A stretch of DNA of 63,270 bases, filler included, from Reclinomonas americana ATCC 50394 (taxonomy: Eukaryota), in the NCBI GenBank assembly GCA_048213135.1. It is 3 parts of 3 records of this genome, joined end to end, with 100 filler letters (N's around TTAATTAATTAA, not from the genome) between each part and the next. Parts side by side here need not be neighbours in the genome. Positions count along the whole stretch, not along the records: positions 30,011 to 59,800 come from PS015618.1; 2 more parts are not named here. One strand, 5' to 3'. Below are positions 4,147-52,004 of the stretch, one piece after another. Each line of letters starts with the position of its first letter. Within the stretch, counting starts at the first letter, position 1. The notes under the pieces were generated by a model. That model saw only the letters and a program-made list of their open reading frames with translations, did no database searches and was not told the origin of the DNA. The translations under genes were made by a program, and so were the position numbers.

Positions 4147-4699
4147 NNNNNNNNNNNNNNNNNNNNNNNNNNNNNNNNNNNNNNNNNNNNNNNNNNNNNN
4201 NNNNNNNNNNNNNNNNNNNNNNNNNNNNNNNNNNNNNNNNNNNNNNNNNNNNNNNNNNNNNNNNNNNNNNNNNNNNNNNNNNNNNNNNNNNNNNNNNNNN
4301 NNNNNNNNNNNNNNNNNNNNNNNNNNNNNNNNNNNNNNNNNNNNNNNNNNNNNNNNNNNNNNNNNNNNNNNNNNNNNNNNNNNNNNNNNNNNNNNNNNNN
4401 NNNNNNNNNNNNNNNNNNNNNNNNNNNNNNNNNNNNNNNNNNNNNNNNNNNNNNNNNNNNNNNNNNNNNNNNNNNNNNNNNNNNNNNNNNNNNNNNNNNN
4501 NNNNNNNNNNNNNNNNNNNNNNNNNNNNNNNNNNNNNNNNNNNNNNNNNNNNNNNNNNNNNNNNNNNNNNNNNNNNNNNNNNNNNNNNNNNNNNNNNNNN
4601 NNNNNNNNNNNNNNNNNNNNNNNNNNNNNNNNNNNNNNNNNNNNNNNNNNNNNNNNNNNNNNNNNNNNNNNNNNNNNNNNNNNNNNNNNNNNNNNNNNN

Positions 4700-6390: not shown

Positions 6391-8270
6391 ACGTGAAGAA
6401 GATGGAGGTGAAGAGCGTAGGGTCGCCAATGAAGCGATGTTGAGTTGATGTGGTGGTGGTAAGATGTTGTTGTGGAGGTTGTTGTGGAGAGGTCAGTCAC
6501 AGGGGACATGTTGGTCGCATGAAGCGCCATGGTTGAATCGTTAAAAGTTGGAGANNNNNNNNNNNNNNNNNNNNNNNNNNNNNNNNNNNNNNNNNNNNNN
6601 NNNNNNNNNNNNNNNNNNNNNNNNNNNNNNNNNNNNNNNNNNNNNNNNNNNNNNNNNNNNNNNNNNNNNNNNNNNNNNNNNNNNNNNNNNNNNNNNNNNN
6701 NNNNNNNNNNNNNNNNNNNNNNNNNNNNNNNNNNNNNNNNNNNNNNNNNNNNNNNNNNNNNNNNNNNNNNNNNNNNNNNNNNNNNNNNNNNNNNNNNNNN
6801 NNNNNNNNNNNNNNNNNNNNNNNNNNNNNNNNNNNNNNNNNNNNNNNNNNNNNNNNNNNNNNNNNNNNNNNNNNNNNNNNNNNNNNNNNNNNNNNNNNNN
6901 NNNNNNNNNNNNNNNNNNNNNNNNNNNNNNNNNNNNNNNNNNNNNNNNNNNNNNNNNNNNNNNNNNNNNNNNNNNNNNNNNNNNNNNNNNNNNNNNNNNN
7001 NNNNNNNNNNNNNNNNNNNNNNNNNNNNNNNNNNNNNNNNNNNNNNNNNNNNNNNNNNNNNNNNNNNNNNNNNNNNNNNNNNNNNNNNNNNNNNNNNNNN
7101 NNNNNNNNNNNNNNNNNNNNNNNNNNNNNNNNNNNNNNNNNNNNNNNNNNNNNNNNNNNNNNNNNNNNNNNNNNNNNNNNNNNNNNNNNNNNNNNNNNNN
7201 NNNNNNNNNNNNNNNNNNNNNNNNNNNNNNNNNNNNNNNNGGAAAGAACTGGGGAGGGAGGGCAGCTGAAGAGAGCGCGGGCCAATATAGCTCGTCGTCT
7301 TTCTTGAGGGGGGTTTTCCGTCGCGAGAATCGCAGAAGGAGAAGAAGAAAGCGCACCACACACACACACAAAGGTGGGTTTGGTTTAGGCAGACATGATC
7401 ACGTAGATCGCACACACAAGGGACACTGGGGGATAACTGTGGCGCACATATCGGANNNNNNNNNNNNNNNNNNNNNNNNNNNNNNNNNNNNNNNNNNNNN
7501 NNNNNNNNNNNNNNNNNNNNNNNNNNNNNNNNNNNNNNNNNNNNNNNNNNNNNNNNNNNNNNNNNNNNNNNNNNNNNNNNNNNNNNNNNNNNNNNNNNNN
7601 NNNNNNNNNNNNNNNNNNNNNNNNNNNNNNNNNNNNNNNNNNNNNNNNNNNNNNNNNNNNNNNNNNNNNNNNNNNNNNNNNNNNNNNNNNNNNNNNNNNN
7701 NNNNNNNNNNNNNNNNNNNNNNNNNNNNNNNNNNNNNNNNNNNNNNNNNNNNNNNNNNNNNNNNNNNNNNNNNNNNNNNNNNNNNNNNNNNNNNNNNNNN
7801 NNNNNNGGGAGGGGGGTTAGCAGGGCGGGTGGGTGGGAGGTGTGCAGGGAATGTGGGGATCTTCGCGCTCACCGAGATCTGAAATGTAACTAAAAACCCC
7901 CCACCCACTTGTCCTGCATGTTCGGTTCCCGAAAACGGCGCGAAGACAAGCTTGTGCACTGGGAAAGGTGGATGCAACTGCTGCGACAACTGTAGTGTCT
8001 GCACACGCGTTTGGAATGCATCGCTTGTTGCAAACGCGCATGTATCTGATGATATTTGAACCAACGTCGACGTCGCCGATATCTCAACAACAAAACCCTC
8101 AGTTGACCGATGATCTTGACCTCCTGGATGTTCGGAGGAGGAGCAGGAGCAGGAGAAGAAGGAAAGAAGGAGAGGAGGAAAGAAGGGCCAGGGAAACCAC
8201 GAGGTTGTTGCTTGCTGCATTCCCATCGTCATCCCATAAACACCAGTCTACACTATGCACAATGCGCCTC

Positions 8271-12675
<4,405 letters not shown>

Positions 12676-13029: not shown

Positions 13030-13108
<79 letters not shown>

Positions 13109-13168
13109 NNNNNNNNNNNNNNNNNNNNNNNNNNNNNNNNNNNNNNNNNNNNNNNNNNNGACGACGAC

Positions 13169-13239
<71 letters not shown>

Positions 13240-33784: not shown

Positions 33785-36249
33785 ATGCGCGTGACGAGCA
33801 GCTTCCACCTGCCTCCTCCTCCCAACAACTTCAAACGCATGCGCAGGACACTATTTCGAACGCAACAATCACGCGACGAACTCCCCACCTCGCCCTCGGC
33901 CTTGCTGTGGCCCTCATTGCTGTGTGCATTGTACTCCTACACAGCATGCTTCACGACGACGACGAAGCCGCGGAAGACAGAGTGGCTGTCGGTGAGAGAC
34001 AGACAGACAGACAGAGAAACACACGCAGATTGCTCATTCCCGCCAGCAGCACCACTGGCACTCTCAGCAAGACAATGGATCGATGTGAGAGACGATGGTA
34101 TGCATGCATTCCCCTCTTCTCGTTTATCTCTTCTCCTTTCCCTCACTCTCACACNNNNNNNNNNNNNNNNNNNNNNNNNNNNNNNNNNNNNNNNNNNNNN
34201 NNNNNNNNNNNNNNNNNNNNNNNNNNNNNNNNNNNNNNNNNNNNNNNNNNNNNNNNNNNNNNNNNNNNNNNNNNNNNNNNNNNNNNNNNNNNNNNNNNNN
34301 NNNNNNNNNNNNNNNNNNNNNNNNNNNNNNNNNNNNNNNNNNNNNNNNNNNNNNNNNNNNNNNNNNNNNNNNNNNNNNNNNNNNNNNNNNNNNNNNNNNN
34401 NNNNNNNNNNNNNNNNNNNNNNNNNNNNNNNNNNNNNNNNNNNNNNNNNNNNNNNNNNNNNNNNNNNNNNNNNNNNNNNNNNNNNNNNNNNNNNNNNNNN
34501 NNNNNNNNNNNNNNNNNNNNNNNNNNNNNNNNNNNNNNNNNNNNNNNNNNNNNNNNNNNNNNNNNNNNNNNNNNNNNNNNNNNNNNNNNNNNNNNNNNNN
34601 NNNNNNNNNNNNNNNNNNNNNNNNNNNNNNNNNNNNNNNNNNNNNNNNNNNNNNNNNNNNNNNNNNNNNNNNNNNNNNNNNNNNNNNNNNNNNNNNNNNN
34701 NNNNNNNNNNNNNNNNNNNNNNNNNNNNNNNNNNNNNNNNNNNNNNNNNNNNNNNNNNNNNNNNNNNNNNNNNNNNNNNNNNNNNNNNNNNNNNNNNNNN
34801 NNNNNNNNNNNNNNNNNNNNNNNNNNNNNNNNNNNNNNNNNNNNNNNNNNNNNNNNNNNNNNNNNNNNNNNNNNNNNNNNNNNNNCATCCGTACTGGGAT
34901 CCGCGATTTGCCGATGTGGTGCGTCTGTCGTACTTGCCAGCATATCTCTCTCTTTGCGGGCTCACGCTCAGTGTGACGCACAGAAATTGTGGCAAGTTCG
35001 TGAATTCGTGCTGCAAGTCGAGGATTTTGCGAGGGAGCAGGCGGGCTTGTGGCAGGGTGACGGCATTGGTGCGTGAAGAGTGAGTGACTCCGCAGCAGAA
35101 TGACATCGCCTCACGGTCTCTTGCAGCTCCACCCGTAATCATGGTTGGCGACTTCAACTCGCTGCCCTGGAGTGCCGTCTACTCGTACCTGGCCGAGCAG
35201 CGCGTCGATCCGGCACACCCCGAAGTGCAGGTGAAGATGGGTGAGGAGATTGTTGTTGTGCGCTCTTGACGTTTAACTGCTGCATGTTGCAGCTCGACCC
35301 CACTGGTTTCCTGTCCACCATGGAGCTGGAGAGTGCGCTCCGCTTTACCAGGTGCGCCCATGGTTTCCCCCATTTCCTAGACACCGCCGTCGCTCACTCG
35401 TCGCACAGTGTGTACTCGTTGGTGCCGGAGCACGCCCAGAGTGAGGCTCCTCCGCACGCACTGCGTCGGCCAGAGGAATACGAACCTCTTGTGGCGGCCG
35501 TCTCGGAAAGAGAGGCACACTTCACCACCCTCACACCGACGTTTGCTGGCGTGCTGGATTACTTGTGGTACTGTCCGGCGGCAGATGGCGCCACATGGAC
35601 CGTTGGTCGCCATTTGCTGCCGCAACGAGCACTACAACTGCCGACTCTGGATGACATTGAGGGGGATGGTGCGTCGCTCTTTCTCACTCATTATGATTTT
35701 CTCTTTTTTTTCTTGCCTGTTCAACCCGTTTCCTGACTCTCTCCCATATACTCTTCTGTCTCGCCCTCCTCTCTCTCTCCCCTCATCCCTTTGATGTTCT
35801 TTGTGTCCTTCTCATTCTTCTTCTCCTCTTATTCTTCTTCTTCGTCGTGTTCTCTCTTTTCACCCTCACACACGCATACACTCGTTGCTCTTTGTCCCTC
35901 CCTCCTTCGCTTCTCTTCCCTCGTCTTCTTCTCCTTACATTCTCTTCCCCTGTCCTCTTCTTCCGTTCCGTTCCCCTTAGTTCCTTTCCCCTCCTTCTGT
36001 CGCTCTCGAACGCTTTGCACTCTGTGCCTCCCTCCCTCTCTCTACCCTCTTCTTTTCGCCCTCTCTCTCTTCTCTCTTTACTTCCTCCCTTCACCTCCCC
36101 TTCTTCCTTCTCTCTCTCCTCGCTCACCATGACCGCCAGAATGGAGGAGAGGAGACCACGCACAAACGCGTGGCGCCCCCAACGAGCGCTTCCCCAGCGA
36201 CCACTTCCTCCTGTGCGCCGAGTTCGCCTGGGTGAGACCCGACACGTGA
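33785..36249 (+). CDS. CCR4/nocturnin/angel-family EEP deadenylase-like protein (middle in gap, start uncertain)
   Basis: HPYWDPRFADVKLWQ, PVIMVGDFNSLPWSAVY, FTTLTPTFAGVLDYLWY and PNERFPSDHFLL. Confidence 0.85.
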
Positions 36250-42492: not shown

Positions 42493-44320
42493 TCACTGTG
42501 GTGGGCGGTACATGATGCTGGTGCCTTGGTGCGTCGTGAACCTCACGCCAGTGTTGTCCTCGATGATGCGGCCCAGAGGGCGCGATGCCAGGTCGCGCTC
42601 AAACTGTGTCAGCGATCCCGGCCACTCGTAGAAGAAGCGATCGCCGGCCTTCAGCATCGCAAACTGCTGCACGAGGATCGCCCGGAACGTCTCGCCGACC
42701 ATGCCACCGGCCACATGCGGCTCCGCCAGCCCGCCCACCCACAGATCCACCATCTCAATGTCGCCATTGTAGGCCGCCGCCAGCTGCGCCGCCACCACCA
42801 CATCGCCGCCCGTAATGTCGGTGAAGAGTGCGCGCGCAGGCAGGCCGAGGCGACGACGAGTCTGGTTGTAGGTGGTGAGGCCGTGGTCGCGGCCGCGCTG
42901 AATATTGAGGGCGGCGAGGTCGAGGCCACGCGCCATGCCCGGCACGTGCTCAAACAGCATGTTGCGCACGCTGTCGGCAATGTGAATGTCGACCTCCTCG
43001 CTCGGGTAGTTGGCCAGGCCGCGCAGCACCGGATCCACGCCGTGCGTCAGGATCTCGGTGGCATCGAAGAAGAAGTCGGCAAGCGACGGCTCGCGCGGCT
43101 CCGGGTCCGCCTCGTCCATCAGCGGCAGTGCATCGCTCAGCATCGTGTGGCCGACGCGGTACGCCGCAGCCGCAAACTCGTTGCTGATGGTGGCGTCGGC
43201 GTTGGAGTTGTACGCGGTGATCCTGTTGATCGGCGTGCAGTCGCCCAGCAGCACCGGCAGGAACTCCTTGTAGGTGATGCGTTGCATCTCGGCACCCACA
43301 ATGCGACGAGCGCGCTGGTACACAATCTCGTCCTTCTTCGCCAAGTCCGTCATGGCCGCCAGCTGCGCGTCGTTGGCCAAGATGATGCCGCACAGCTTGT
43401 TGTGTTCGCGCACAAACACCGTGTGCATGGCGGTGAGGCCAGACTGCTCGTTGACGCGCACATCGCCCGCCACAAAGTACGACGAGATCGCCGGCGAGGC
43501 GCCGTTCGTCGGCAGCAGGTTGCCGTCCGAGGTCTTCATCTTGCCGTCGATAAAGGTGCGCAGCGAGTTGGCCGTGGTCGCGTCGGAGCCGTACACTTGC
43601 GAGGCGTCGATCCACGCAGTGATGTGGTTGGTCTGCTCACGGCGACCATTGATCGTCTGGTAGTCGTCGCGTGACTGCGGAATGGCGCCGCCAAACAGCG
43701 GGTCCGCCGGATCCAGCACGGCGATCGACGAGTCCTGCGTGGGACTGACGCTGGCCGTCTGCGTAATGTCGTGGTCCAGGAACTGACCCCACTGCCACAC
43801 CATGCCCGACACGTTGTTGGCGGCCTCGAACTCATTCGGCTCGCCATTGGCGTCGACGCCCTGCTGCAGCACCAGGTTGGAGATGTCGCGGGCATTGGGT
43901 CCCGCGCGCAGGCTGTCGCTGGCGCCGTAGTTGGCGAGGTTGGCGTAGCGAATGTATGCCTGGCCGGCCGAGCCGAGCGGGCACTTCTTCCCGTTGGGTG
44001 CCAACGCATCCGGAACGCATCGCTGTTGCAGGTTGTTGTTGGCGCCGTCAATCGAGCGCCACTCGGGTGCCGAGGGCGCTGGCGCAGGCGCAGGGGCTGG
44101 GGCTGGGGCTGGCGCAGGGGCTGGCGCAGGAGCAGGAGCTGGCGCAGGAGCAGGCGCAGGCTTCGGTGGTGGAGGAGAGGCGGCTTGTGCACTGCGTGAC
44201 CAGCAGAGGTGAGTGGGCTGTGGTGTGGCGGGAGAGGGGGGGGAGAGAAGAAGAGACTCACATGACGGCCACGATGACCAAGAGTGCCAGCACGGCAAGC
44301 ACACGAGGAGAGAACATCAT
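42493..44320 (-). CDS. Secreted heme peroxidase (peroxidase-cyclooxygenase superfamily) with Pro-Ala linker; one intron in the signal peptide
   Basis: RSIDGANNN, WGQFLDHDI, ITAWIDASQVYGS, AGDVRVNE, FVREHN, EFAAAAYRVGH, DLAALNIQRGRDHG, DLWVGGLAE and GDRFFYE. Confidence 0.95.
44078..44160 (-). repeat. Coding hexamer repeat encoding a (Pro-Ala)n linker
   Basis: About 14 PA units between the signal peptide and the peroxidase domain. Confidence 0.9.
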
Positions 44321-45000: not shown

Positions 45001-47878
45001 ATGTCTGCGCCCACGGCAGCTGCTGGTGGTGCTGCTGCTACGTCTGCAACAACAGCAAGCGTGCCTTCCTCAGGCAACTCTCCACGTCACACTCGCCAAT
45101 CATCGTCGGGCGGTGGCGTGCTGGTCGCGCCAGCTGCTCCCGCACAGCACCGCTTCCGCGCACACGTGAGCAGTCCCACCTCATCATCATCATCATCGGC
45201 GATCGAGATGACAGTGATCAATAGCGACCACGGCGATGGAGAGCGTGTGGCGCTGATCAATGAGGAGATTCATCGCATGCCGTTGCCGCCGCGCACGCTG
45301 CCGCGTGTGAACAGCACCGACGACGACGCAGGCGATGTGGAAGAGATCGAGGCAATGGTGGCCGCACAGAGCCACAATCGGCGGCTGCGGAGGGCGCTGG
45401 ATCACGAGGTCGAAGATGAGTACGATAATGAGGATAAGCGACAGCCGACGCTGATGAGACGGCGCACGCCTGTGGAGCTGTTGCTGCCGCCTGGCTCGTC
45501 GTCGTCATCGTCGTCGTCAATGACTGTGGTGCCGGCGACACAAGTGCATTCACCTGCGCTGTTGTCTCCATCACCGACTGCTGCTTCCGCTGGCCATGGT
45601 GGTGCTGCGGCGATGCCGGCTGTGGCGACTGCGGAGTCGTCGTCGTCGTCGTCGCCGTCGGGCGGTCTGCTGATGACGGGGGTATCGGTGGCGTCGCTCT
45701 CCAACGCCAACTTGTCGCTGGTGGCGGGCGTCGACAACAGCAGCGGGGATGAGGGCGGCGAAGGCTCGGGCTACCTGCGTGACATTGATGCGGCGCCGGC
45801 TACGGCGACCGTCACGCGTGGCATGAGTCACTTTTGTGGCGCCAGCTTCCTCATTGCGATGTTGCGTCGCTGTGCTGCTGTAGGTTGTGCGATGTAGGTC
45901 ACTCACTGCTCCCGTGTGCGTGTGCGTTGCAGTGGGTGCGTGTATGCACATGAATAATCTCTGTGTCGTGTGTGTGTGCGCGCTGGCGACTAATGGCTGT
46001 GCAGGTACATTGATCCCGGCAACTACGCCTCCAACATTGAAGCCGGATCGACGTACGGATACTCGCTCTGTTGGATTCTGCTGGTGGCCTCGGCGATTGG
46101 TGTCTTTGTGCAGATATTAGCCGCTCGTGTCGGTGTTTGCACAGGTGTGTGTGTGTGCGACAAGGAACGAGGCTCGTGAGTTGGTGCTTGTATGCCACTC
46201 ACCCTGTCAATAGGGCGCACGCTGTCGGCCCTGTGCCGTCGGTGCTACAAGAGCCCGTGGATCAACTACCCACTCTTTGCGCTCGCGGAAATCGCCATTA
46301 TCAGTACGGATCTTGCCGAAGTGCTCGGCACAGTGGTAGCGTTGCGTGCGCTTGCGGCGTGCAAGCCCTCCCACAGTTGCTGCAGACTGACGCGATGCCT
46401 GTTTACGTGCGCCAGTCTCAATCTGTTATTTGGAATACCCTTTGCTTGGTGTTTGGTGATCACCGGACTCGACACGATTCTGTTTCTCGCCATCCAGCAC
46501 TTGGGTGCGTGACGAGTGGAGTCGAAGCACAACTGTGCCGTCGTCTCATCCTCTGTGCTTAGGGCAACGTGTTCTCGAGGCCGTCATTGGCGTCTTGTTG
46601 GTGGCCGTCTCCATGTGCTACGTGGTGGAGATGTTCTTTGTGCAGCCGAATGTGTTGGCGATCATGCGTGGCTTTGTGCCGTCATTACCGAGTGGCTCGA
46701 TTCTCGTCGCCGTCTCCATTCTTGGTGCCACGGTGATGCCGCACAATCTCTACCTGCACTCGTGGGTGGTGCAGTCGCGCAATGTCAACCATCACGACCC
46801 AGTGGAGACCGCCAAGGCCACAAAGATGCTCAGCATCGACACGACGATCTCGCTGTCCATGTCGTTCTTTGTCAATCTGGCCATTCTCATTGGTGCGTGA
46901 GAGTTGGCGATGAGGGAGGGGGACAGCGAGCGACGACAAGTCTCAATGCTCTCTGTGTGTGCAGTGGCCGCGGGAACGTTCTTCGGCGTGCAGGAGGTGT
47001 CGACGCTGCAGGAGGCGTACTTGCTGCTGGATCACGTGTTTGGCGACGCGGCGAAGATCCTGTTCGGTCTCTCATTGCTGCTCTCCGGTGCGACCTTGAG
47101 AGCTCCTCGCACATTTTTTCGTGTGCTCACCGTGACTGCACTCCAGGTCAAAGCTCCACGATCACTGGCACGCTGGCTGGCGAGACTGTGATGCATGTTG
47201 AGTCGTCGTCGCACTGGCCGGCAATTCTTCCTCCCTTCGTTTTCCTCACCGCAGCAAGGCAGGGCTTTTTGCGACTCCGCTGGAAGCCGTGGCTGATCCG
47301 ACTGGTCACGCGCGGGCTGGCTCTCTTGCCGGCCTGCATTGCGGTGCTGAGTTTCGGTGACAAGGGCACGTACGCAGCACTTGTTGCATCGCAGGTTTGC
47401 TAGCAGCTGTCCTCTGTCGTGGGGAGGTTGTCTCTCATCACCAAGCACCCTACTAGGCCGTGCTCTCGGTCCAGCTCCCGTTCGCACTAATTCCACTGGT
47501 CCGTGTGGCCGGCAGTAAGCTCATGCAGCCGTGTCACCGACTCGGAGGCATTGTTGCGTTTTCAATCTCTGGCCATCGCGCGCCACCGCCGTCGCGAATT
47601 GATCTCATTGTGTGGTGCTTGCGTTCGTGCAGGGTGCCGCCGCCGCATGGATCATCACCGGCTTTGTGCTGTCGCTGAATGTGTGGCTGGTGGGCGACAC
47701 TGTAATCTCCGTGGTCGAAGACATGACGTCGACCGTTGGCGCCGTCATGTTCATCATCGCCTGCTCCATCGGCGTCGCCGCCCTGCTCACCCTGCTCATC
47801 TTCATCTCCTTTTCGCGATTACCCGAGTCTCTCTCGCGGGCCGAGAAGCCCCTAATCATCAATGGCGCCATAAACTAG
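45001..47878 (+). CDS. NRAMP (SLC11/MntH) divalent metal transporter with long Ser-rich N-terminus
   Basis: AIGYIDPGNY, AEIAIISTDLAEVLG, ILGATVMPHNLYLHS, SGQSSTITGTLAG, RLVTRGLALLPA and SQAVLSVQLPFALIPL. Confidence 0.95.
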
Positions 47879-49757: not shown

Positions 49758-52004
49758 CAGAGTGTTTCTTACGCGTGTAGTCACTCACAATTGCATTCTG
49801 GGGAAAGGATTTCGACTGCACGTTTGAGGAGGCCATGGCGATGCCGAGTGGCATTGTCAAGGTGTGTGGGTGTATGCTCTTCTGCTCCTCCATGCTTGCC
49901 ACTCATGATGGTGATGATGTGATAGGACTCGTGGCCGCAGTCTCTAAAGGACTACGTGAGTCGGGCACGATCGCTGACCATGAATCGCTTCCCCGACGAT
50001 GACTATCTGCGTGCGCTCTCCGACTCGGTGATGCCGACGATCGATGCGTACGACGAACTCAAGCGCGCCATTGGCGACAAGAAGCTGTATGAGGTGGCGC
50101 AGCTTGTCTCTCATCTCGCGTGCCACTGTGACCACGCCTCACTCTCACATGCAGGTGGTGCATCTGGCACCGCTGGTCTCCCGCTTGTGCGACACGCTGG
50201 CGGTGGACACGGTGCTGGACATTGGCGCCGGCCAGGGCTACCTCTCGCAGGTGCTGTCGTTTGTGTGCGGCAAGCGCGTCATTGGCGTCGAGTCGCGCGC
50301 GCACAACTCGGAGCAGGCGTACACACGCATGACTCGCGTGGCGGAGAAGCTCAGCAAGCAGATGCACATGGATCCGAGTCAGCGTGGTCGGCGGCGGCGA
50401 AAGCAGCGCGCCAATGAGAAGCGACAGCTGCTGGAGAAGACTGCGCGTGATGCACTGGATGCCGCGTATGCGCGTGGCGTCACGGATGAGAGGGAGTTGG
50501 AGGCGGTGCGCACGGAGGCATTGCGCGCTTTGGAGGCATCGCTGGAGCCACCGAAACTCAAGTTCGGTCAGTACATTCCGCTGACGAGCTGGGTCACGGC
50601 AGATACGACGCCGGAGGAGATTTGCAGCGTGTTGCATGGGTGCGTGTTGCATGGGTGTTTGTTCAAGGATTCGTATGCGTGTGTGCTGATGTGCAAGCAG
50701 GTCGGAATTCGCCTCCGAGTACGCCCTGTCGCACACGGTGACTGTCGCTGCTGCCGCACCACCGCCACCGCCACCACCACCATCAGCGTCAACACTGCCG
50801 AATGAAGGTCCTTCGTCTTCTGCTGCGCCGCCAAATGAAGGTCCCTCGTCTTCTGCTGCAACACCGTCGGGCGGTCGGGGCTNNNNNNNNNNNNNNNNNN
50901 NNNNNNNNNNNNNNNNNNNNNNNNNNNNNNNNNNNNNNNNNNNNNNNNNNNNNNNNNNNNNNNNNNNNNNNNNNNNNNNNNNNNNNNNNNNNNNNNNNNN
51001 NNNNNNNNNNNNNNNNNNNNNNNNNNNNNNNNNNNNNNNNNNNNNNNNNNNNNNNNNNNNNNNNNNNNNNNNNNNNNNNNNNNNNNNNNNNNNNNNNNNN
51101 NNNNNNNNNNNNNNNNNNNNNNNNNNNNNNNNNNNNNNNNNNNNNNNNNNNNNNNNNNNNNNNNNNNNNNNNNNNNNNNNNNNNNNNNNNNNNNNNNNNN
51201 NNNNNNNNNNNNNNNNNNNNNNNNNNNNNNNNNNNNNNNNNNNNNNNNNNNNNNNNNNNNNNNNNNNNNNNNNNNNNNNNNNNNNNNNNNNNNNNNNNNN
51301 NNNNNNNNNNNNNNNNNNNNNNNNNNNNNNNNNNNNNNNNNNNNNNNNNNNNNNNNNNNNNNNNNNNNNNNNNNNNNNNNNNNNNNNNNNNNNNNNNNNN
51401 NNNNNNNNNNNNNNNNNNNNNNNNNNNNNNNNNNNNNNNNNNNNNNNNNNNNNNNNNNNNNNNNNNNNNNNNNNNNNNNNNNNNNNNNNNNNNNNNNNNN
51501 NNNNNNNNNNNNNNNNNNNNNNNNNNNNNNNNNNNNNNNNNNNNNNNNNNNNNNNNNNNNNNNNNNNNNNNNNNNNNNNNNNNNNNNNNNNNNNNNNNNN
51601 NNNNNNNNNNNNNNNNNNNNNNNNNNNNNNNNNNNNNNNNNNNNNNNTTGGACCGCTACCTGTACGTGCAATACGACGTGCAACGGGAGCTTCGCTCGCG
51701 ACCACCGGAACAGGGCGGCCTGGCGCCCGACGAACACATCTATGCGACGGTGCTCCCGGTGTTCCATCCGTGCAAGTCACCGCGCAATCTGGCACTGGTT
51801 GCGGTGCGCTGTCGCGACGTGCAGGCCGTCATCTCGTGTTTGTATCACGAGACGGCGACGGCAACAGCGGCCAGTGGTAGCGCTGACGATGCGTCCGCCG
51901 TGGAAGTGGCTGGCGTACCACAGAAGAGACCGTGGGAAGAAGTAGAGGAGGACGAGGAGAAGAGTGGAGAGAAAGGAGGAGAGGAAGACGAGATAATAGA
52001 ATGA
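49171..52004 (+). CDS. METTL25/RRNAD1-like SAM-dependent methyltransferase (part in gap)
   Basis: KKLYEV, VLDIGAGQGYLS..VIGVE and C-terminal LDRYLYVQ..VLPVFHPCKSPRNLALVA. Confidence 0.8.

Follow-up and report, generated by a model that had tools for sequence, protein, structure and literature searches.

The window, i.e. the whole stretch of 63,270 nucleotides that was analysed, carries an NRAMP gene of the MntH type, predicted to encode a manganese/iron transporter, on its plus strand (45001..47878). The exons of this gene were located by tblastn with bacterial homologues, and their edges were then fixed by GT-AG ends and by the reading frame. Joining the 11 exons gives an open frame of 731 amino acids that ends with a TAG stop codon (47876-47878), and the joined protein scores 490.8 bits with a profile built from 120 homologues. 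With the Pfam model Nramp (PF01566), exon 6 scores 114 bits (cut-off 29.8) and other exons score between 24 and 40 bits; the NCBIfam model MntH (NF001923) ranks at the top of its collection in all three NRAMP exons tested. Both hallmarks of the family are present, namely DPGN in TM1 and M-P-H-N in TM6 (A-T-V-M-P-H-N-L-Y, exon 6). To judge by these profile matches and motifs, the gene is a member of the NRAMP/MntH family of divalent metal transporters. The N-terminal 270 residues of the protein form a low-complexity extension with serine runs. We also observed V-M-H-G-F (47188-47196 / 47263) where both tblastn-aligned bacterial homologues have V-M-E-G-Y.

The neighbours of the NRAMP gene are ordinary eukaryotic genes. 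On one side lies an intron-less ORF of 607 codons for an animal haem peroxidase (42496-44316, minus strand; 419 bits), with ESCRT-II and EGF-like pieces further upstream of it. Because this ORF adjoins a gene with ten introns, intron density differs sharply between neighbours. On the other side, a gene for a fusion of ubiquitin with ribosomal protein L40 (ubiquitin-L40; 48985-48089, minus strand) gives a clean product of 128 amino acids. Its first intron (48882-48456) is 427 nt long and starts at G/GTGCGT, the slash marking the exon-intron boundary, and its second intron (48265-48183) is 83 nt long and starts at A/GTTGCGT. A methyltransferase domain was found at 50032-50802. The window also contains 17 runs of N, which make up about 7% of its length (e.g. 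4147-4699, 6555-7240, 34155-34885 and 50883-51647) and which, rather than AT-rich DNA, account for the low-GC bins of the composition profile; none of them lies within 45001-47878.

The original prediction placed an exon of only three nucleotides (TGG) between two complete introns, just ahead of the metal-binding motif of the transporter. The stretch 45861..46004 is laid out exactly in this way: GTTGCG..TTGCAG, TGG, GTGCGT..TGCAG and then G TAC ATT GAT CCC GGC AAC (Table 1). Both introns are complete, of usual size and provided with a branch-like motif, as had been announced, and our translations agree that the two forms of the protein are in frame, i.e. A-I-G-Y-I-D-P-G-N when TGG is kept and A-M-Y-I-D-P-G-N when it is skipped. 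Exon 1 ends with ..GCG AT, two bases into a codon. TGG would provide the third base of this Ile codon and the first two bases of the following Gly codon, the two residues standing at D-4 and D-3, counted from the D of DPGN.

Table 1. Exons, introns and branch-like motifs of the NRAMP gene (positions in the window; slash, exon-intron boundary)
Feature	Position	Strand	Remarks
Exon 1	45001-45860	+	Low-complexity N-terminal region and TM1a start G-A-S-F-L-I-A; start codon at 45001 assumed
Intron 1a	45861-45932	+	72 nt; donor T/GTTGCGT (second donor class); acceptor TTGCAG
Branch-like CTCAC of intron 1a	45902-45906	+	Motif, 26 nt ahead of the acceptor
Micro-exon TGG	45933-45935	+	Predicted from homology and splice signals
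Intron 1b	45936-46004	+	69 nt; donor G/GTGCGTG (first donor class); acceptor GTGCAG
Branch-like GACTAA/CTAAT of intron 1b	45988-45994 (CTAAT 45990-45994)	+	Motif only; 10 nt before the acceptor
Exon 3	46005-46144	+	Last base of the Gly codon, Y-I-D-P-G-N, TM1b/TM2; DPGN at 46012-46023
Exon 4	46214-46340	+	Exon joining
Exon 5	46416-46504	+	Exon joining
Exon 6	46563-46892	+	Exon joining
Exon 7	46965-47087	+	Exon joining
Exon 8	47147-47196	+	Exon joining
Exon 9	47263-47394	+	Exon joining
Exon 10	47457-47552	+	Exon joining
Exon 11	47633-47878	+	Exon joining

The eight bases TGCGATGT, which comprise the exon end and the GT of intron 1a, are present twice in this region (45855-45862 and 45888-45895, 33 nt apart). 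The second copy forms a donor in the same phase (GTAGGT at 45894), use of which would lengthen TM1a by 11 residues. This repeat could be a relic of the intron's origin, or could be due to chance.

An alignment with NRAMP homologues had been proposed as a check of the prediction. Segments of 18 residues with DPGN at their end were extracted from 112 of the 120 homologue proteins (8 were left out, being truncated or devoid of the region) and from 67 of 68 metagenome loci, which gave 179 sequences and 54 distinct 18-mers; the homologues are bacterial MntH proteins with about 45-54% identity to exon 6. Among these 54 distinct segments, D-4 is occupied by V (49 segments) or I (5 segments) and D-3 by G or A (27 segments each), while G is found at D-11 in 52 of them. 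With TGG included, the protein of the window reads G-A-S-F-L-I-A-I-G-Y-I-D-P-G-N, so that I stands at D-4 and G at both D-3 and D-11. With TGG skipped (..L-I-A-M-Y-I-D-P-G-N), A is at D-4, M at D-3, and there is no G at D-11. The alignment therefore speaks for the prediction: V/I at D-4 together with G/A at D-3 occurs in 54 out of 54 segments, only inclusion yields I-G, and the fixed spacing of TM1a is obtained only with TGG. The TM1a of the window is somewhat atypical in having A at D-10 (G-A-S), a position held by P in 53 of the 54 segments.

We also enumerated the splice models with one or two GT/GC-AG introns between 45830 and 46030. From these 219 models, 49 were open and in frame, and the TGG model ranks first among them with the profile HMM of the 120 homologues; the runner-up (483.9 bits) is 6.9 bits behind and needs a GC donor. 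Lower scores were obtained with a GC-AG intron giving A-M-L-Y (483.7 bits), with an exon of 9 nt instead of 3 (483.0 bits) and with plain skipping (479.6 bits, i.e. 11.2 bits under inclusion), and the in-phase donor at 45894 gave the lowest score of the five models scored (472.6 bits). Very probably, the gene contains the three-base exon, by which a conserved pair of residues is restored to the metal-binding helix.

The position of this residue pair can be related to the structure of DraNramp. In solved chains of this protein (PDB 8e5s, 6d91 and 5kte), the corresponding segment is G-P-A-V-I-A-S-I-A-Y-M-D-P-G-N, with the same spacing as the TGG-included form. According to excerpts of PMC6398981, Mn2+ is bound in the outward-open state by D56, N59, M230 and the backbone carbonyl of A53, and P57 is a helix-breaking proline. 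Since P57 is named in this way, D56-P57-G58-N59 corresponds to DPGN, and A53 to D-3. The Gly at D-3 of the window protein is thus at the position of A53, and TGG would give two of the three codon bases for that residue. Without these bases, TM1a would moreover be shifted in register with respect to the metal site. The bacterial proteins and the window protein share the spacing G-x-x-x-x-x-x-I-[AG]-Y-x-D-P-G-N, with the Gly of the micro-exon at the A53 position; the bacterial genes are however intron-less and encode a TM1a that starts with G-P-A, whereas the window protein has G-A-S and the long low-complexity N-terminus.

Apart from introns 1a and 1b, ten introns of the window were considered as trusted (8 in the NRAMP gene and 2 in the ubiquitin-L40 gene). 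Their lengths are 69, 75, 58, 72, 59, 66, 62, 80, 83 and 427 nt, with 58-80 nt for those of the NRAMP gene, and the GT-AG introns 1a and 1b fit the range of 58-83 nt that comprises nine of the ten. Two classes of donors were distinguished among the 12 introns. The first class (G/GTGCGT-like) is found in 6 introns, including 1b, each time preceded by an exonic G, and the second class (N/GTTGCG(T) or GTTGAG) in 5 introns, including 1a, each time after a base other than G; a single donor (G/GTTTGC) falls outside this exon-base rule. Both donors around TGG obey the rule, and hexamer counts on both strands go in the same direction, as G precedes GTGCGT in 34 out of 82 cases and GTTGCG in 8 out of 65. 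The GTTGCGT donor of intron 1a is also found at 46341, 47553 and 48265 (minus strand, ubiquitin-L40), where the junctions give conserved protein, and the GTGCGTG heptamer of intron 1b is identical at the intron starts 46505 and 46893. CTCAY motifs lie ahead of the acceptors of NRAMP introns 3, 5, 6, 7, 8, 9 and 10. In introns 8 and 9 (47197-47262 and 47395-47456), the acceptor that keeps frame and homology is not the first AG past CTCAY, and AGs at 6-11 nt are bypassed, which suggests a minimum distance between branch and acceptor.

The probability of such an arrangement by chance was estimated with 100,000 random introns of 144 nt, generated by a first-order Markov model of the introns of the NRAMP gene. 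In 24,192 of them, an AG-NNN-GT was present with 50 nt or more in each of the two remaining parts. The number fell to 2,121 when the donor had to be among the six hexamers seen in the other introns of the gene, to 1,143 with YAG in addition, to 188 with an upstream branch-like motif, and finally to 26 when the three bases also had to code for I plus G/A. Chance is a poor explanation, since, besides this low frequency, homology independently predicts that one residue pair, and no more, is missing. The predicted RNA fold of 45851-46014 is no better than that of shuffled sequences (z = -0.66; 49 of 200 shuffles as good), and Rfam and tRNA scans gave no matches. A search for introner-like copies showed that the ten introns have only (TG)n stretches in common with the rest of the window. 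Long microsatellites of the (TG)n/(CA)n type are located at about 12460-12645 and 13040-13235, and they give short matches to the GT-rich starts of several introns.

Several other readings of the stretch have to be weighed against these data. The whole segment 45861-46004 may be a single GT-AG intron of 144 nt, with A-M-Y-I-D-P-G-N as its product and an internal AG-TGG-GT that is a chance occurrence or a decoy. Both the outer donor (45861) and the outer acceptor (46004) are good sites, so that their direct joining is mechanically possible, the product is open and in frame, and size is no obstacle, as the 427-nt intron of the neighbouring ubiquitin-L40 gene indicates that longer introns are tolerated. 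We nevertheless consider this reading as improbable. Its product is the form that loses 11.2 bits against the homologue profile, that has M at D-3 (G/A in 54/54) and that lacks the G at D-11 (present in 52/54). Moreover, the internal donor and acceptor reproduce exactly the consensus employed by other introns of the gene, the AG at 45931-45932 is the first to follow the branch-like CTCAC, and the chance estimate for the arrangement is 26 in 100,000. Other splice patterns, i.e. a GC-AG intron at 45864-46004 (A-M-L-Y) or an exon of 9 nt at 45933-45941 (A-I-G-C-V-Y), are also open and in frame and score above plain skipping, but both remain about 7 bits under the TGG model and their donors (GCGTCG and GTATGC) match no donor hexamer of the ten other trusted introns. 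In addition, M-L conflicts with the V/I and G/A pair of 54/54 segments, and the 9-nt exon breaks the spacing held by 52 of the 54. These patterns have even less credit than the single intron.

The original prediction had further suggested that TGG could act as a switch, i.e. as a regulated cassette exon of which both forms are made, skipping being a way to change or shut off the transporter. Skipping does stay in frame, and micro-exon switches exist in animals and have been reported in a fungus, according to excerpts of PMC7935315 and PMC11121469. The form so produced would have M in place of I-G and a TM1a shorter by one residue beside the carbonyl ligand; that this yields an inactive or differently selective protein serving as a switch seems to us improbable. 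Where introns are short and splicing proceeds by intron definition, exons are seldom skipped, which counts against the switch. The skipped form also breaks two positions that are invariant in the 54-segment comparison and that lie beside the metal site, and for this reason a dead protein is more likely than an alternative function: if made at all, this form would probably be inactive, and a defective by-product. The switch is consequently given little weight, about as little as the single intron, and what small probability is still left goes to an NRAMP gene that is not expressed. The micro-exon part of the prediction stands, as the best of the enumerated models by homology, splice signals and intron size, while the switch, for which the basis was in-frame skipping, gained no support. 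It is thus likely, from the sequence, that TGG is a constitutive 3-nt exon between two ordinary short introns.

For this constitutive exon, the following course of splicing can be proposed. Intron definition may reasonably be supposed, the other introns of the NRAMP gene being 58-80 nt long: each of the two introns would be recognised separately, with its sites paired across about 70 nt. Such a pairing would be natural because an exon of 3 nt cannot be defined across the exon and the introns are of about 70 nt. The upstream intron would be recognised through the GTTGCGT donor class after a non-G exon end, and the downstream intron through the G/GTGCGT class, whose exonic G would here be the final base of the micro-exon. 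With three bases between them, acceptor and donor can hardly be bound at the same time, so that removal of the two introns is probably successive. The order would be free, since either removal would leave the remaining site intact. With intron 1b removed first, a normal exon would follow the acceptor at 45932; with intron 1a removed first, the donor would keep its T-G-G/GTGCGT context. A transcript from which only intron 1a is removed would meet TGA after six codons and would therefore be unproductive. The complete mRNA would then encode A-I-G-Y-I-D-P-G-N, with the invariant spacing of TM1a back and Gly at D-3. We infer the inclusion of TGG in the mRNA, its constitutive use and the sequential removal of the introns from the anatomy of the stretch, the fit to homologues and the agreement with the other introns, which are themselves observed.

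Coding micro-exons are already known, down to 1 nt in plants and from 3 to 27 nt in animals, and the particular value of the present case is its position in an invariant NRAMP motif. In plants, constitutive micro-exons of 1-15 nt have been described, including the 1-nt exons of APC11 and VPS55 (PMC8831610, excerpts). As far as these excerpts go, the plant cases resemble the one described here in that a tiny coding exon lies between complete introns, is needed for a conserved protein, is usually missed by annotation and can be recognised by homology; they differ from it in being proved by RNA-seq and RT-PCR and conserved across species, whereas the case of the window is predicted from sequence. 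The hosts also differ, the window coming from a protist-like eukaryote with introns of 58-83 nt and unusual donor motifs. The animal micro-exons of 3-27 nt are neuronal and depend on SRRM4 or PRP-40 (excerpts of PMC7935315, PMC8378409 and PMC9929638). According to the same excerpts, they share with TGG the lower limit of 3 nt, the preserved frame and the change of one or two residues at a functional surface, but they are alternative, flanked by long introns and under dedicated regulators, whereas TGG has short introns and its inclusion looks obligatory.

Comparison can also be made with systems in which nothing is kept. Recursive splice sites, which correspond to zero-length exons, and nested stwintrons leave no base in the mRNA. 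Like them, the stretch described here has 3' and 5' splice sites that are almost adjacent, and a stepwise removal of a longer segment is likely; unlike them, it must keep three bases for the conserved protein. A recursive site or stwintron with removal of the whole stretch was considered for the window and rejected, as total removal gives the lower-scoring A-M-Y, in conflict with 54/54 segments.

These results would have consequences for annotation and for splicing. A correct model of the NRAMP gene would need the 3-nt exon; with a lower limit on exon length, a gene finder would connect 45860 with 46005 and annotate a transporter whose metal-binding helix is damaged. The spacing of three bases between acceptor and donor would constrain the assembly of the spliceosome and point to a stepwise removal. 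The TGG site offers a clean test of one-codon exon splicing, the easiest here, because its motif is invariant from bacteria to humans and structurally understood, and each residue of the predicted product can be checked, since the micro-exon lies inside a highly conserved motif of a well-studied transporter family. Should the switch prove true, the organism would tune its metal uptake through splicing, with a spliceosome that deals with exons of one codon as a matter of routine.

We searched for relatives of the gene at the protein and DNA levels. With exon 6 as a query, the protein search retrieved only bacterial-type Nramp proteins (at most 54% identity, about 45-54%), none from the organism of the window. 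A metagenome scan with the last exon detected no relative, and a scan with exon 3 detected 68 loci (40-64% identity), all 68 with an uninterrupted x-D-P-G-N context; the one that was read by eye (L001) is an uninterrupted bacterial gene. Genome contigs were scanned twice for an acceptor placed directly before G-TAY-ATN-GAY-CCN-GGN-AAY, which gave 0 loci the first time and 72 the second time. None of the 72 is an Nramp gene by flanking translation, and many of them are unrelated proteins with R-Y-M-D-P-G-N. A close eukaryotic relative or a paralogue carrying the micro-exon was thus not found by these protein, metagenome and genome-contig scans, which returned bacterial or unrelated DNA only. 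Literature on micro-exons in protists contained nothing relevant by title or abstract among the matches listed, and the excerpts of PMC8042270 hold nothing on a size minimum.

Finally, we scanned the window for tandem introns around exons of at most 12 nt. Six pairs were identified at four places, against 0.46 in shuffled sequences. We make no claim of an enrichment in micro-exons, because at least one of the six pairs is false and the others are unanchored. Three places correspond to candidate micro-exons of 9-11 nt, at 25962-25972 (plus strand), 29083-29091 (minus strand) and 16806-16814 (minus strand). The last one looks false and was rejected, as its second ‘intron’ (16805-16710) reads as coding. 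The candidate at 29083-29091 is located just upstream of an exon that we take to resemble a cation exchanger.
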